Below, one piece after another: positions 4,326-26,272 of a DNA stretch of 64,000 nt. A program made the translations under genes and the position numbers. The notes under the pieces were generated by a model. That model did not search any database and was not told the DNA's origin. It was given only the letters and a program-made list of their open reading frames with translations. Every line of letters starts with the position of its first letter. Within the stretch, counting starts at the first letter, position 1. Source of the stretch: Rathayibacter sp. VKM Ac-2760 (GTDB lineage Bacteria > Actinomycetota > Actinomycetes > Actinomycetales > Microbacteriaceae); contig NZ_CP047173.1 of NCBI RefSeq assembly GCF_009834185.1, positions 1,391,725-1,455,724 on the forward strand. Direction: 5' to 3'.

Positions 4326-5801
4326 TCAGGGCGTCGACGACGAGCGGATGCGCTGGACCATCTCGCTCGTGGAGTGCTCGGAGACGTAGCCCACCGTGGT
4401 GACGGTGCCGCCGTAGGAGCGGACGACCACCGCCTCCGCGAGCATGTCGGGGGCGTAGTCGCCGCCCTTCACGTAGACGTCGGGCCGCACGCGCTCGAGC
4501 AGCGGGATCGGGGTGTCGCCGCTGAACAGGGTGACGTAGTCGACGCAGCCCAGCTCGGCGATCACGCCCGCGCGGTCGCCCTCGGGGTTGATCGGGCGGC
4601 CCTCGCCCTTCAGCCGGCGCACCGAGTCGTCGTCGTTGACCGCGACGACCAGCACGTCGCCGAGCTCGCGCGCCTGGCGGAGGTAGGCGGTGTGGCCGCG
4701 GTGCAGCACGTCGAAGCAGCCGTTGGTGAAGACGATGCGGCGGCCGCGACGGGCCTGCTCGGCGAGCACCTCGACGAGGCCGTCCTCGCCGAGCACCACG
4801 GCGCCGGGGGCGGCGAGCGAGGCGAGCAGATCGTCCGCGGTGCAGACGGAGGTGCCGGGGCGCTGGACGACGACGTCGGCCGCGGCCTGCGCCAGGTCGA
4901 CGGCGGTCGCGAGCGAGCGGCCGGCGGCGAGGGCGAGAGTCGCGGTGGCGGCGAAGGTGTCGCCGGCTCCGGAGGCCTGCTTCTCCTCCGCGGGCTGGGC
5001 GAAGGTGCGGCTGACCGTGCCGTCGGCGTCGAGCGCGGTCGAGCCGTCGCGGTCGAGAGTGACCACGACGTGCCGGGCGCCGGAGCGCTCGCGCAGGCGG
5101 CCAGCCGCGGCGCGGACGGCGGCGGCGCGCTCGGCGCCGCGGCCGAGCGGAGTGCCGAGGAGGCGCTCCGCCTCCTTCGCGTTCGGGGTGACCAGGTCGG
5201 GCGCCGCGAAGGCCCAGTCGGCGAGCTCGTGCGCATCGATCACGAGGAGTCCGGGGCGCTGCACGGCGAGCACGCGCTCGATCGCGGCGCGGAGGATCCC
5301 GGAACCGTAGTCGCAGACGAGCACGGCGTCGGCGCCGTCGGCCGCGCGGACGGCGGCCTCGGCGAGCTCGGTCAGCTCGGGGTCGGACGGGCGGTGCGGA
5401 CCGGAGTCGACGCGCAGCATCACGCTGTCGCCGCCGACGACGCGGGTCTTGATCGTGGTCGAGGCGTCGCTCCGGACGATCGCGCCGGTGTCCAGGCCGG
5501 CGCGCTCGAGCGCGGCGAGGAGGCGGTCGCCCTCGGCGTCGCGGCCGGCGACCCCGACCGTGCGCACCTCGGCGCCGAGCGCCCGCAGGTTCGCCGCGGT
5601 GTTGGCCGCACCGCCGGCGACATCGACGACGTCCTCGAGGCGCAGCACGGGCGCGGGCGCCTCGCGGGTGACCCGCTCGGCCTCGCCGAGCCACCAGGAG
5701 TCGAGGATGAGGTCGCCGACGACGGCGACGACCGGCGGCCGCTCGCGCACGTGCGCGACCAGCGCGCTCGCCCGCTGCAGCGCGGAGCCCTCGAGGCTCA
5801 T
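4326..5801 (-). CDS. hldE: bifunctional D-glycero-beta-D-manno-heptose-7-phosphate kinase / heptose-1-phosphate adenylyltransferase
   Basis: 491 aa. The N-terminal ribokinase-like domain has GAGDTF and the C-terminal cytidylyltransferase domain has NGCFDVLHRGH. The start overlaps the upstream ALDH stop (ATGA). Confidence 0.85.
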   Translation of the reverse strand: MSLEGSALQRASALVAHVRERPPVVAVVGDLILDSWWLGEAERVTREAPAPVLRLEDVVDVAGGAANTAANLRALGAEVRTVGVAGRDAEGDRLLAALERAGLDTGAIVRSDASTTIKTRVVGGDSVMLRVDSGPHRPSDPELTELAEAAVRAADGADAVLVCDYGSGILRAAIERVLAVQRPGLLVIDAHELADWAFAAPDLVTPNAKEAERLLGTPLGRGAERAAAVRAAAGRLRERSGARHVVVTLDRDGSTALDADGTVSRTFAQPAEEKQASGAGDTFAATATLALAAGRSLATAVDLAQAAADVVVQRPGTSVCTADDLLASLAAPGAVVLGEDGLVEVLAEQARRGRRIVFTNGCFDVLHRGHTAYLRQARELGDVLVVAVNDDDSVRRLKGEGRPINPEGDRAGVIAELGCVDYVTLFSGDTPIPLLERVRPDVYVKGGDYAPDMLAEAVVVRSYGGTVTTVGYVSEHSTSEMVQRIRSSSTP

Positions 5802-7150
5802 CGCGCGCCGCCGGGCAGGACGGGGAGGCCGAAGTGCACGACCGTGGTCGTGGTCATCTCGTCGAGCAGCTCCGGGCCGTAGCCGAAGCCCGAGCCGCTG
5901 GTGCCGCGCGGCTGCGCGCTGCCGCCGGGGGCGCCGCCGAAGACGCCGTTGATCTTGACGGTGCCGACGGGGAGGGTCGCCGCGGCGCGGTGCGCGTGCT
6001 CCATGTCGGCGGTGAGCACGGTGGCTGCGAGGCCGTAGGGGCCGGCGGCGGCGCGGGTGAGCGCCTCGTCGAAGGAGTCGACGACGAGGATCGGGGCGAC
6101 GGGGCCGAAGGTCTCCTCGGTCATCACCAGCATCTCGTCGGTGCAGTCGGCGAGGACGGTAGCGGGGTAGAAGGTGCCGTCGCCGGGGGTGCCGCCGGTG
6201 AGGGCGCGGGCGCCGTCGGCGACGGCGGCGGAGACGTGCTCGTGCACGGCGTCGCGCATCCGCTCGTCGACCAGGCGGGGGAGGGGGCCGGCGCTCCAGC
6301 GCTCGGCCTCGGCGACCAGGGCGGCGGTGAAGTCCTCGGCGACGTCGCGGTGCAGGTAGATCCGCTCGACGGAGGTGCAGATCTGGCCCGCGTTGGCGAA
6401 GGCGCCGAGGGCGGCCTGCTCGGCGGCCCAGACCGGGTCGACGTCGCGGTCGACGACGAGCGCGTCGTTGCCGCCGTTCTCGAGGATGGTGTGCGCGCCG
6501 GTGACGGCGGCGATGCGGGCGAGGGCGCGGCCGGTGGCGGTCGAGCCGACGTGCGCGAGGACGTCGACGCCCTCGGTGCGGGCGAGGGCGTCGCCCACGG
6601 CGCCGTCGCCCTCGACCAGGGTCAGCACGCCCTCGGGGAGCGCCTCGGCGAGGATCGAGGTGAAGAGCGCGCCGGTGCCGGGGCTGCGCTCGCTGGGCTT
6701 GTGCACGACGACGTCGCCGGAGACGATCGCGGCGCCGAGCATCCCGGCGGCGACGGCGACCGGGTCGTTCCAGGGGGTGAGCGCGAGGACGACTCCGCGC
6801 GGGTGCGGCAGGGCGAGGTCGACGTTCAGGGCGCCGCCGCGCAGGCTCCTGCCGCGGTGCAGCGGGCCGAGCTCGGCGTACTGCAGCAGGGTGTCGACGC
6901 CGGCGCGGACGCCGCCGAGGGCGTCGCCGGCGGGCTTGCCGGTCTCCTCGGTGTTGAGGTCGGCGAGCTCCTGCTCGCGGGCGGCCACAGCGTGGGCGGC
7001 GGCGCGCAGCAGGGCGCCGCGCTCGGCGGGAGCGGTGGCGGCCCAGGTGGGGAAGGCGGCGCGGGCGCGGGAGACGGCGTCGGCGGCGAGGTCGGCGGGG
7101 GCGCCGGTGGTGCCGGCGGCGGGGGTCGCGGTGTCGATGGTCACGGTCAC
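5798..7150 (-). CDS. aldehyde dehydrogenase family protein
   Basis: ALDH-like sequence throughout (EETGKP, ALTPWNDP, FANAGQICTS, EETFGPV). The start is uncertain: GTG at 7150 or 7144 follows GAGAGG, while the track start 7240 lies inside a repeat element. Confidence 0.75.
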   Translation of the reverse strand: MTVTIDTATPAAGTTGAPADLAADAVSRARAAFPTWAATAPAERGALLRAAAHAVAAREQELADLNTEETGKPAGDALGGVRAGVDTLLQYAELGPLHRGRSLRGGALNVDLALPHPRGVVLALTPWNDPVAVAAGMLGAAIVSGDVVVHKPSERSPGTGALFTSILAEALPEGVLTLVEGDGAVGDALARTEGVDVLAHVGSTATGRALARIAAVTGAHTILENGGNDALVVDRDVDPVWAAEQAALGAFANAGQICTSVERIYLHRDVAEDFTAALVAEAERWSAGPLPRLVDERMRDAVHEHVSAAVADGARALTGGTPGDGTFYPATVLADCTDEMLVMTEETFGPVAPILVVDSFDEALTRAAAGPYGLAATVLTADMEHAHRAAATLPVGTVKINGVFGGAPGGSAQPRGTSGSGFGYGPELLDEMTTTTVVHFGLPVLPGGAR

Positions 7151-7237
7151 CTCTCGGTCGGAGGCGTCCGCAGGGGTCGCGGACGCTGATGCCCTCGTCC
7201 GATACCCGCGCGGCGGCGGCTCAAACGGATGGCTCGT

Positions 7238-7305
7238 CACAACATCAGCTGAGAAGGCGACTCATCGCCGATGAGCGATGAGCCCCCGATTCAGCTGATG
7301 TTCTG
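7238..7305 (+). repeat. family-2 palindromic element, copy A
   Basis: CACAACATCAGCTGAGA ... TTCAGCTGATGTTCTG arms around a roughly 35-nt asymmetric centre (GCCGATGAGCGATGAG). Confidence 0.75.
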
Positions 7306-25156: not shown

Positions 25157-25201
25157 TGAGGATCCCGCGTCCGAGGATCCCGCGTCTGAGGATCCCGCGT
25201 C
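25157..25201. repeat. 15-bp tandem repeat x3, YGAGGATCCCGCGTC (each unit contains GGATCC)
   Basis: Three exact or near-exact units, with degenerate copies upstream (about 25120-25156). They lie in the divergent gmhB / GT9 promoter region. Confidence 0.7.
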
Positions 25202-25249
25202 TGAGCCGCTCGGAGCGGGGTACGGGACCTCCGACAGGAAGGAGGCGCC

Positions 25250-26272
25250 GTGCGCGCTCTCACCGCCCCCGACGGCACCCCGGAGATCCTCGCCCTGCGA
25301 GCCCTCAAGCTCGGCGACCTCCTCGTGGCCGTCCCCGCGCTCAAGGCCCTGCGCCGCGGGTTCCCCGAGCACCGGCTGATCCTCGCGACCACGCCCTGGC
25401 TCGAGCCGATCGTCGACCTCGTCGACGGCCTCGACGCGCTCGTCCCGACCCTCCGCGGTCTCGACGACCCGCTGCCGGTCGATCCGGGCCGGATCGAGCT
25501 GGCCGTCAACCTGCACGGCAACGGCCCGGAGTCGCGCGACGCCCTGATCGCGCTGGAGCCGCAGCGCCGGCTCGATTTCCGCGTCCCCGCCCTCGACCCG
25601 GATGCGAGCCACGACGACCCGCGCCCGCTCTGGATCGACGGGGAGCTCGAGCGCGCCCGCTGGGCCCGCCTGGTCAACTCCATCGGCCTCGACGCCGACC
25701 CGGAGGACGTGGCCATCGCCGTCCCGGACGCGCCGGCTCCGGTCGCCGGCGCCGCGATCGTGCACATCGGCGCCTTCTACGGCTCGCGCGAGTGGCCGGA
25801 GGAGCGCTTCGCCGCCGTCGCCCGCTCGCTCGCCGCCGAGGGCCACCGCGTCGTCTACACCGGGGGTGCGAACGAGGCCGACCGCGCCCGCCGCGTCGCC
25901 GAGCTGGCCGGCACCGGCGAGGTGCTCGCCGGCACGATCGACCTGACCGGGTTCGCGGCGGTCGTCGCAGCCTCCGAGGTCCTCGTCACCGTCGACACCG
26001 GAGCCGCGCACCTCGCCTCGGCCTACGGCATCCCGTCGGTGGTGATCTTCGGACCGGCGCCGCCCGAGGCCTGGGGCCCGCCGGTGAGCGGACCGCACGT
26101 CGTGCTGACCGACGCGTCGCTCCGCCGCGGCGACGTCTTCTCCTCCGAGCCGGACCCCGCGCTGCTCGCGGTGCAGACCGAGCACGTGCTCGACGCGCTC
26201 GCCGCTCTGCCCTCGCGCGCCGAGGCGCACCTCAGGCGGTCCGCAGCCGCGCTGCCGGGCGGACGGGCGTGA
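25250..26272 (+). CDS. glycosyltransferase family 9 (heptosyltransferase-like)
   Basis: 340 aa. GGAAGGAGG precedes the GTG. Motifs: LRALKLGDLLVAVPALKAL, VHIGAFYGSREWP, VDTGAAHLASAYGIPSVVIFG. Confidence 0.8.
   Translation: MRALTAPDGTPEILALRALKLGDLLVAVPALKALRRGFPEHRLILATTPWLEPIVDLVDGLDALVPTLRGLDDPLPVDPGRIELAVNLHGNGPESRDALIALEPQRRLDFRVPALDPDASHDDPRPLWIDGELERARWARLVNSIGLDADPEDVAIAVPDAPAPVAGAAIVHIGAFYGSREWPEERFAAVARSLAAEGHRVVYTGGANEADRARRVAELAGTGEVLAGTIDLTGFAAVVAASEVLVTVDTGAAHLASAYGIPSVVIFGPAPPEAWGPPVSGPHVVLTDASLRRGDVFSSEPDPALLAVQTEHVLDALAALPSRAEAHLRRSAAALPGGRA

Follow-up and report, generated by a model that had tools for sequence, protein, structure and literature searches.

A conserved actinobacterial locus of putative NDP-heptose and GT9 glycosyltransferase genes in Rathayibacter, with a probable Nit1C-like insertion

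Introduction

To our knowledge, genes annotated as "ADP-heptose:LPS heptosyltransferase" (LPS, lipopolysaccharide) are carried by thousands of actinobacterial genomes even though these bacteria have no LPS, and the target that is glycosylated has never been shown. Here we describe a locus with genes of this kind in Rathayibacter sp. VKM Ac-2760, located in a stretch of 64,000 nt (contig NZ_CP047173.1, positions 1,391,725 to 1,455,724), which is referred to as the window and numbered from its first nucleotide. The locus combines candidate genes for the synthesis of nucleoside diphosphate (NDP)-heptose with genes for three GT9-family and several other glycosyltransferases (GT), and in this strain it encloses a block of genes resembling the Nit1C cluster. 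Rathayibacter is a Gram-positive genus of the Microbacteriaceae (order Micrococcales, phylum Actinomycetota), in agreement with the initial annotation of the window, which had recognised a Gram-positive host.

The closest described system is the cwg operon of Streptomyces coelicolor (SCO6179-6190, cwgA-L). Its genes include cwgH, for a phosphoheptose isomerase, and cwgI, for a bifunctional synthase/transferase resembling HldE, together with several genes for transferases. Expression depends on sigE and is induced by vancomycin, and the predicted product is a cell-wall glycan not yet identified (PMC6767563, PMC5839063). When compared by published gene names, the two systems have a like local order, such that transferase, isomerase and HldE in cwg correspond to GT4, gmhA and hldE2 in Rathayibacter. 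They differ in that cwg also has nucleotide-sugar dehydratases, while no second HldE, aldehyde dehydrogenase (ALDH) or divergent GT9 pair is reported in the cwg descriptions (PMC6767563, PMC5839063).

Actinobacterial clusters with NDP-heptose synthetases and several glycosyltransferases have also been proposed to assemble heptose-containing oligosaccharides (Tang 2022, as cited in PMC9978623), and functional heptose enzymes are reported well outside the Gram-negatives in the commentary on Tang et al. 2024 (PMC11461863). As these secondary accounts present them, the clusters of Tang et al. resemble the Rathayibacter locus in placing heptose-nucleotide genes with several glycosyltransferases in Gram-positive actinobacteria. 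Their enzymes are tridomain isomerase-kinase-transferase fusions, whereas in Rathayibacter gmhA and hldE2 are separate genes with a 4-nt overlap, and a second, didomain HldE is present. That Gram-positive actinobacteria can carry both GT9 genes and genes for making heptose is already recognised, and the Rathayibacter locus adds to this the Micrococcales and neighbouring orders, as well as the unfused gmhA.

Gene content and conservation of the locus

We consider it likely that the window contains the Rathayibacter version of an actinobacterial locus that is old and conserved by vertical descent and in which a soluble NDP-heptose pathway and a multi-glycosyltransferase set would build a heptose-containing glycoconjugate, and that the Nit1C-like block is an independent insertion. 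The GC content of the window is about 74%, and since shadow open reading frames (ORFs) crowd the ORF lists at such a GC content, real genes were picked by third-position GC and frame plot. Family calls relied on Pfam gathering scores and NCBIfam/TIGR equivalog cut-offs, and operon boundaries were defined by overlaps and gaps alone. The genes of the locus present in the window are as follows (SDR, short-chain dehydrogenase/reductase).

4326-5801, minus strand: hldE1, 491 aa, intact (PfkB 122.9 bits, CTP_transf_like 62 bits)
5798-7240, minus strand: ALDH (PF00171, 351 bits)
16966-18111, plus strand: GT9-1 (PF01075, 97.2 bits)
18244-18948, minus strand: classical SDR, 234 aa, final gene of the heptose operon (adh_short 132 bits; weak Epimerase match, 26.6 bits)
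19021-20395, minus strand: hldE2, frameshifted (repaired protein 458 aa)
20392-21024, minus strand: gmhA-like sedoheptulose-7-phosphate isomerase (SIS_2, 75.9 bits)
21021-22337, minus strand: GT4b, an MshA-like glycosyltransferase (Glycos_transf_1 141 bits, Glyco_transf_4 116 bits)
22334-23341, minus strand: GT-B glycosyltransferase, recognisable only in its C-terminal, GT1-type half (Glyco_trans_1_4 42 bits; weak PimB matches)
23338-24420, minus strand: GT9-2 (PF01075, 76.0 bits)
24417-25028, minus strand: gmhB-like HAD-IIIA phosphatase, first gene of the operon (TIGR01656 and TIGR01662 above cut-offs)
25250-26272, plus strand: GT9-3 (PF01075, 73.7 bits)

The closest homologs of the window proteins are from Rathayibacter, with identities of 84-91% (GT9-1) and up to 97% (hldE1). 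For a broader comparison, 80 loci around GT9-1 orthologs were taken with 10-kb flanks, one genome per species, and searched by tblastn with every window protein. The genes recur in a fixed order and strand, GT2<hldE1<ALDH, GT9-1>, SDR<hldE2<gmhA<GT4<GT<GT9-2<gmhB, GT9-3> (arrowheads give the direction of transcription), in Microbacteriaceae, Micrococcaceae, Cellulomonas, Brevibacterium, Corynebacterium halotolerans and Aeromicrobium, at 50-75% identity to the window proteins. Out of 80 loci, GT9-3 was found in 73, SDR in 66, gmhA in 57, hldE1, hldE2, GT4 and GT in 56 each, GT9-2 and gmhB in 54 each and ALDH in 49. Genes called independently in Aeromicrobium and Planctomonas and tagged by Pfam make up the matching set of 13, including the GT2 gene that is missing from the window (see below). 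This defines a unit for study, namely a 13-gene locus of fixed order that extends from Microbacteriaceae to Corynebacterium and Aeromicrobium and has GT9-1/GT9-3 as its minimal core. In about 20 Arthrobacter/Pseudarthrobacter genomes GT9-1 and GT9-3 stand alone as an operon of two genes, which suggests that the two enzymes work as a pair.

The heptose operon in the window is tightly coupled. The five consecutive 4-nt overlaps (GTGA/ATGA) that the initial annotation had described from gmhB to hldE2 are real, and a sixth (ATGA) joins ALDH to hldE1. The SDR gene comes next after hldE2 in 66/80 loci and encodes the sole candidate for a sugar-modifying oxidoreductase. No HldD-type extended SDR/epimerase (PF01370 type), the C6'' epimerase needed for the L,D form of the heptose, was found in the locus or in the other mid-sized window ORFs tested, as had been noted before for the epimerase. 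Scans for sigma-70 promoters and intrinsic terminators gave no match at the junctions of the Nit1C-like block or across the locus and are uninformative at about 75% GC. No convincing transmembrane segment was seen in the locus proteins, and the locus has no gene for a transporter/exporter, a flippase or a polyprenyl-phosphate transferase.

At the level of families, the earlier proposal of a full heptose-nucleotide pathway (isomerase, kinase, phosphatase and nucleotidyltransferase) accompanied by three GT9-family enzymes holds. Both gmhA and gmhB are present in the sense that the right families, SIS_2 and HAD-IIIA, give the best match, though below equivalog cut-offs. For gmhA the best NCBIfam matches were phosphoheptose isomerases (146 bits against a cut-off of 276 and 139 against 209); for gmhB the best match was heptose 1,7-bisphosphate phosphatase (110 bits against 178), and the HAD-IIIA subfamily models were passed. 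Since these two proteins and the HldE kinase domains (below) are diverged members scoring below the equivalog cut-offs, the substrates given for them are those we infer. Pfam confirmed the SDR and the two GT-B genes proposed initially, of which GT4b reaches 237 bits with the MshA model TIGR03449 (cut-off 462). A role in anti-phage defence was prompted by a match of GT4b to the Pfam entry "GT4-conflict" and was rejected, as 0/10 locus proteins match PADLOC and stronger generic GT4 matches explain the hit.

The Nit1C-like insertion

In VKM Ac-2760 the following genes and sequence elements lie between ALDH and GT9-1.

7238-7305: palindromic element at the left junction, just upstream of ALDH; inverted repeat with 31-nt arms, GCACAACATCAGCTGAGA...TCAGCTGATGTT
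7321-8646, minus strand: GNAT + AIR-synthase-like (AIRS) protein
8706-9851, minus strand: radical SAM protein
10230-10799, plus strand: MSMEG_0572-like protein
10809-11687, plus strand: first CN-hydrolase
11680-12000, plus strand: MSMEG_0570-like protein
11997-13271, plus strand: flavoprotein
13353-14207, plus strand: second CN-hydrolase
14279-15385, plus strand: GT4 of the Nit1C-like block
15385-16800, plus strand: AMP-dependent ligase with AMP-binding domain
16834-16934: second copy of the palindromic element, right junction, upstream of GT9-1

The initial annotation had raised the possibility that hldE1, the Nit1C genes and the heptose operon form a single functional locus of roughly 22 kb, in which case the small-molecule product of Nit1C, or a glycosylated form of it, might be heptosylated. 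The genes are indeed physically contiguous. ALDH-hldE1 follows the GNAT/AIRS gene in the same orientation after a gap of 80 nt, and GT9-1 lies 166 nt downstream of the AMP-dependent ligase gene; because of this proximity to genes of the block, read-through co-transcription is possible; terminators were not detected, in a scan that is uninformative at this GC content. The block also has its own GT4, and the arrangement is retained in at least six Rathayibacter genomes or contigs. Against this stands the distribution of the two gene sets. Nit1C genes occur in only 2/80 loci, both from Rathayibacter, and in three further close relatives found through hldE1. They are absent from 75/75 non-Rathayibacter loci and from those of R. 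tritici, R. iranicus and R. toxicus; all these loci have ALDH and GT9-1 as neighbours, 200-1400 nt apart with nothing between them and with no Nit1C gene within 10 kb. Nor does hldE1 belong to the Nit1C cluster, its conserved partners being ALDH and GT2. Moreover, Nit1C is described in Proteobacteria and cyanobacteria as a self-contained seven-gene cluster with no heptose genes, as far as the accounts in PMC1199592 and PMC7815647 extend, and the matching palindrome at both junctions fits the insertion of a cassette. Judged by synteny, a single unit appears largely refuted, and we regard it as very improbable.

Sequence similarity to R. tritici is lost in the window at about 7190-7240 and returns at about 16847, and it follows from these limits that the insert is about 9.6 kb long and includes the AMP-dependent ligase gene. 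That gene overlaps the GT4 stop codon by 1 nt and accompanies the block in all Rathayibacter copies. The block at 7321-16800 is a recent, lineage-specific insertion, probably of an independent cassette, in the divergent promoter region between ALDH and GT9-1 of one Rathayibacter subclade; it is physically nested in the heptose locus and would be functionally separate from it. This removes a false lead, as the Nit1C-like insertion would be no guide to the heptose acceptor.

The label "Nit1C-type" given to the block was partly right. The accessory genes pass the MSMEG_0565-0572/Sll0783-0787 models (the Sll078x set), which describe a nitrogen-starvation cluster, and the insert shares with that cluster the radical SAM, GNAT+AIRS, flavoprotein, 0570, 0572 and GT4 members. 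All of TIGR04043 (496 bits, cut-off 304), TIGR04050 (438, 312), TIGR04045 (116, 68), TIGR04046 (635, 498), TIGR04042 (126, 80), TIGR04044 (242, 110) and TIGR04047 (404, 260) are above their cut-offs in the insert. Neither CN-hydrolase is of the Nit6803 type, since both fail the Nit6803/sll0784 nitrilase model TIGR04048, with 39.9 bits (10809-11687) and 32.3 bits (13353-14207) against 502.6. Nit1C proper is defined by a nitrilase of the Nit6803/sll0784 type (Podar 2005), whereas the insert is without it and has an AMP-dependent ligase attached. By these profile scores the insert is the mycobacterial-type variant rather than Nit1C in the strict sense.

The palindrome found at both ends of the insert is about 70-80 nt long (GCACAACATCAGCTGAGAG...CTCTCAGCTGATGTTGTGC). 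Its 12-mer core, AACATCAGCTGA, occurs four times without mismatch in the window, each time at one of the junctions, whereas chance alone would give 0.03 copies, and in R. tritici a single copy of the palindrome is present in the intact spacer between ALDH and GT9-1. The element may serve the divergent promoters as an operator, or it may be a site of insertion or recombination.

The HldE paralogs and the lost GT2 gene

The initial annotation had counted hldE twice in the window, which is correct for the gene at 4326-5801, whereas that at 19021-20395 is frameshifted by a 2-nt deletion and is not an intact ORF. In hldE1, the TIGR02199 model (rfaE_dom_II, heptose-1-phosphate adenylyltransferase) scores 192.0 bits, above the cut-off of 181.5. 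For its kinase domain TIGR02198 is the best match, with 216 bits against 345, and the full-length HldE model NF008454 gives 346 against 521. The hldE2 span of 1375 nt is no multiple of three, and both the GC3 frame plot and the translations place the switch of frame at about 19630, within the kinase domain and right after the pfkB GAGD motif (...DPCGAGD). Where relatives have GAC CGC TTC (Asp-Arg-Phe), the window has GAC C TTC. The gene is in a single frame in 56/57 relatives, and with the two nucleotides restored in silico it gives a clean HldE of 458 aa, which scores 187.0 bits with TIGR02199 (cut-off 181.5), while TIGR02198 is its best match at 133 bits against 345 and NF008454 gives 270 against 521.

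The hldE2 frameshift could stem from a sequencing error, the assembly having been seen without its reads, though we rate this less likely than a real mutation, because two nucleotides are lost from non-homopolymer sequence and the same strain has a clean 850-nt deletion of GT2. An independent 1-nt deletion in hldE2 is found in the Nit1C-bearing Rathayibacter sp. VKM Ac-2630, at about 12432-12438 of its locus, in the linker between kinase and nucleotidyltransferase. Two unlike lesions among 58 orthologs, both in the Nit1C subclade, hint at relaxed selection there, with the reservation that the sample is small and sequencing error possible. Since hldE1 is intact, NDP-heptose synthesis in VKM Ac-2760 probably continues.

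A recent duplication of hldE was considered and rejected, because the two paralogs, hldE1 and repaired hldE2, share only 39% identity and each of them is conserved in several genera. They differ at a residue that is of interest for the choice of nucleotide. In the (F/L)xxGxSTT motif, Arg precedes STT in about 50/58 hldE2 orthologs (YHAGRSTT in the repaired protein), and this position is mostly His in hldE1 orthologs, the C-terminal motif of hldE1 itself being YVSEHSTS. Arg in this motif confers CTP/UTP promiscuity according to the commentary on Tang et al. 2024 (PMC11461863), in which the enzymes of Tang et al. are reported to gain wider nucleoside triphosphate (NTP) use from it. If the reported Arg ("R5") is placed correctly by our interpretation, HldE1 and HldE2 may, by analogy, supply different NDP-heptoses.

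By conservation, the partners of hldE1 are ALDH and GT2 and not the Nit1C genes. ALDH is a conserved member of the heptose locus and adjoins hldE1 in 49/80 loci. Coupled downstream of hldE1, relatives have a gene for a GT2 glycosyltransferase, about 850 nt long, which is found in 35/80 loci. In VKM Ac-2760 a deletion scar is present at 4308-4341, the window being collinear with R. tritici up to 4308 (5740 of the R. tritici locus) and again from 4341 (6594), and tblastn found no GT2 anywhere in the window. The closest Nit1C-bearing relatives have kept GT2, among them a contig with 97% identity in hldE1, so that the loss is specific to Rathayibacter sp. VKM Ac-2760.

Next to this scar, between recQ and hldE1, two further features were observed. 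A small conserved ORF (MAVPTPIEIQKHLSGIDYPASKDTIVEAAEKQG...) is located at 4063-4290 on the minus strand, and its counterparts in relatives are tagged DUF2795. Directly after recQ, at 3990-4070, there is a long perfect palindrome, GAGATGCCACTTGTGAGCGGGCGACACGGCGTGTCGCGCTCACAAGTGGCATCTC, part of which recurs at about 58571 (58560-58600). Copies of it are found at several sites in the R. tritici, R. iranicus and R. toxicus loci, and it resembles a dispersed Rathayibacter element of the repetitive extragenic palindromic (REP) kind.

The three GT9 enzymes

GT9-1, GT9-2 and GT9-3 all pass the PF01075 cut-off of 22 bits, so that none of the three genes initially called GT9 falls outside the family on profile search. 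With models of the LPS enzymes HepI, HepII and HepIII they reach at best 41-71 bits, against cut-offs of 134.6-185.3 (TIGR) and 437-569 (NF). Because all three score below these curated models, they are GT9 members and not orthologs of the LPS enzymes. The start of GT9-1 is uncertain, since its orthologs, 360 aa long, align to 94% of the query; the true start is perhaps about 21 codons downstream, at about 17029. With the start at 16966, an exact look-up of the protein in public assemblies gave no match.

An AlphaFold2 model of GT9-1 (pLDDT 84, pTM 0.83) has a normal Rossmann N-lobe with no N-terminal beta-barrel. In a Foldseek search it matched WaaF (1PSW, E 1e-18), an uncharacterised Veillonella GT9 (3TOV, E 2e-17), WaaC (2H1H, E 4e-14) and TibC (E 1e-8). 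Among the best structural matches of the model were also chains of PnsB1, a subunit of subcomplex B of the plant chloroplast NADH dehydrogenase-like (NDH) complex (9GRX_1, 7F9O_6, 7WFF_a), which has a GT9-like fold. GT9-2 and GT9-3 match WaaC, WaaF and 3TOV by sequence. The equivalent of the catalytic base WaaC Asp13, in an N-terminal xxGD motif, is invariant (80/80 orthologs of GT9-1, 54/54 of GT9-2 and 73/73 of GT9-3), and the equivalent of WaaC Asp261 in the DxGxxH motif of the donor site is Asp in 80/80 orthologs of GT9-1 and 73/73 of GT9-3. In GT9-1 the two catalytic Asp equivalents are D48 and D293.

The Rathayibacter enzymes thus have in common with WaaC, WaaF and WaaQ the Pfam family, the GT-B fold and the Asp13 equivalent, and GT9-1 and GT9-3 also share the DxGxxH motif; WaaC and WaaF are among the best structural matches of GT9-1. 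The differences are that the Rathayibacter host has neither LPS nor an acceptor of the Kdo-lipid A type (Kdo, 3-deoxy-D-manno-oct-2-ulosonic acid), that the Waa enzymes are without the Cys3-His insert of GT9-1 and GT9-2, and that WaaC Asp261 is replaced by Asn in GT9-2. This insert is located in the C-lobe, is absent from WaaC/WaaF and carries invariant Cys3-His clusters that are predicted to form metal fingers, C337-x2-C340-x13-C354-x-H356 in GT9-1 (80/80) and C305/C313/H318/C320 in GT9-2 (55/55). GT9-3 has both catalytic Asp equivalents and no metal finger. In the related literature that we found on these systems, neither the Cys3-His fingers nor the Asn of GT9-2 nor the residue difference between the HldE paralogs is reported. 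These features, namely two HldE paralogs unlike at the reported NTP-specificity residue, Cys3-His fingers in 2/3 GT9s and an Asp-to-Asn change in GT9-2, are all testable.

The fingers raise the question of whether the GT9 enzymes might be protein heptosyltransferases, or act on some other macromolecular non-lipid acceptor, in the manner of TibC/AAH, using the Cys3-His finger for oligomerisation and substrate recognition. TibC and AAH, bacterial autotransporter heptosyltransferases (BAHT), transfer from ADP-heptose to a non-LPS acceptor and have a late C-lobe metal finger with CxxC...C spacing near that of GT9-1. The iron finger of TibC (Cys339/342/358/370) is needed for assembly of the dodecamer and recognition of its protein substrate TibA, and the invariant clusters in the C-lobe insert of GT9-1 and GT9-2 are equivalently placed with nearly equal spacing (PMC4358343). 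TibC is a significant structural match of GT9-1, and the fact that all the locus proteins are soluble with no lipid-carrier machinery is also in keeping with such a role. On the other hand, TibC ranks far below WaaF, 3TOV and WaaC in the fold search and is undetected by sequence profiles: it was missed when PDB sequences were searched with a profile of the GT9-1 family, and the finger region gave only a non-significant match to an NAD-ligase zinc finger (E 0.25). TibC/AAH have an N-terminal beta-barrel, an atypical four-stranded N-lobe, a Cys4 iron finger and an autotransporter substrate, whereas the GT9-1 model has a normal Rossmann N-lobe with no barrel, and its cluster is Cys3-His and not Cys4, with similar zinc ribbons occurring in many unrelated enzymes. 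The locus also encodes no conserved candidate substrate protein. Since sequence profiles do not connect GT9-1 and TibC, the likeness of the fingers is best regarded as a positional analogy only. On balance, protein heptosylation of this kind seems distinctly unlikely.

Proposed pathway and nature of the product

We propose that GmhA would isomerise sedoheptulose-7-phosphate, that the kinase domain of HldE would form the beta-1,7-bisphosphate, that the GmhB-like HAD phosphatase would take off the 7-phosphate and that the nucleotidyltransferase domain of HldE would then give NDP-heptose. Transfer of sugars would be carried out by the three soluble, inverting GT-B enzymes of family GT9, the GT4, the GT1-like enzyme and, in relatives, the GT2, that is by up to six glycosyltransferases. 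ADP-heptose as the donor of the GT9 enzymes is something that we infer from their genomic link with gmhA, hldE and gmhB. ALDH and the classical SDR might modify the acceptor or one of the sugars. Since the proteins have no membrane segments and no exporter is encoded, assembly would take place in the cytoplasm, or at the inner face of the membrane with machinery encoded elsewhere. As to the product, an envelope or other cwg-type glycoconjugate is rated most likely, with protein heptosylation and a soluble heptoside as live alternatives.

The second of these alternatives would be a soluble, cytoplasmic heptose-containing oligosaccharide or glycoside, either of the compatible-solute or storage type or a secondary metabolite, instead of an envelope polymer. 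It would account for the lack of transmembrane segments, exporter, flippase and polyprenyl-phosphate transferase. The GT4 is MshA-like, and MshA glycosylates a small phosphorylated acceptor; ALDH and SDR could yield an acid or polyol aglycone; and a GT9 gene of Frankia was induced by salt (PMC5563000). However, the strict synteny across families speaks for a housekeeping or structural role and not for a strain-variable natural product, the locus has no polyketide synthase (PKS), non-ribosomal peptide synthetase (NRPS) or tailoring genes, and cwg, the closest described system, responds to cell-envelope stress. We therefore hold a soluble product of this type to be quite improbable.

Several points weigh against a conserved heptose-glycoconjugate locus as proposed here. 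We know of no heptose-containing polymer from the cell walls of Rathayibacter or other Microbacteriaceae. The locus encodes neither a flippase nor a ligase nor an enzyme to prime a lipid carrier, an unusual situation for a wall polymer. Two genes are broken in VKM Ac-2760 (GT2 deleted, hldE2 frameshifted), and the system may be decaying there. The exact substrates of GmhA, GmhB and the HldE kinase domains could differ from those assigned, given their scores below equivalog cut-offs. GT9-2 has no Asp261 equivalent, the position being an invariant Asn in 55/55 orthologs (sgNtgpaHl, compared with svDtglsHl in WaaC). The main caveat, which concerns the heptose donor, is that the approximately 20 Arthrobacter/Pseudarthrobacter genomes mentioned above retain just GT9-1/GT9-3 at the site with no heptose genes nearby; if these pair-only genomes have no heptose genes at all, GT9-1 and GT9-3 may not use heptose.

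A bolder form of the proposal is an undescribed Gram-positive system of cytoplasmic heptosylation, in which the metal-finger enzymes GT9-1 and GT9-2 together with GT9-3 would heptosylate a protein or other non-lipid acceptor, HldE1 (His) providing ADP-heptose and HldE2 (Arg) CDP- or UDP-heptose. We think this unlikely. If it were true, the long-annotated "LPS heptosyltransferases" of actinobacteria would gain a real substrate. NDP-heptoses are agonists of ALPK1, and NDP-heptose from plant- or skin-associated actinobacteria could matter for host sensing.

Other features of the window

The only Rfam match in the window was a tRNA-Gln. At 51216-52304 on the minus strand there is a second aldehyde dehydrogenase ORF that covers only Pfam positions 97-461, for which a wrong start or an N-terminal truncation is possible. 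A tandem array without an Rfam match is found at 27354-28198, comprising 9.2 copies of a 92-nt unit with 87% matches. It fills the gap between a gene for a sigma factor of the SigB/F/G family (26232-27305, minus strand) and gltX (28303-29844, plus strand), and the unit contains many short inverted motifs (CGGCTCGC / GCGAGCCG).

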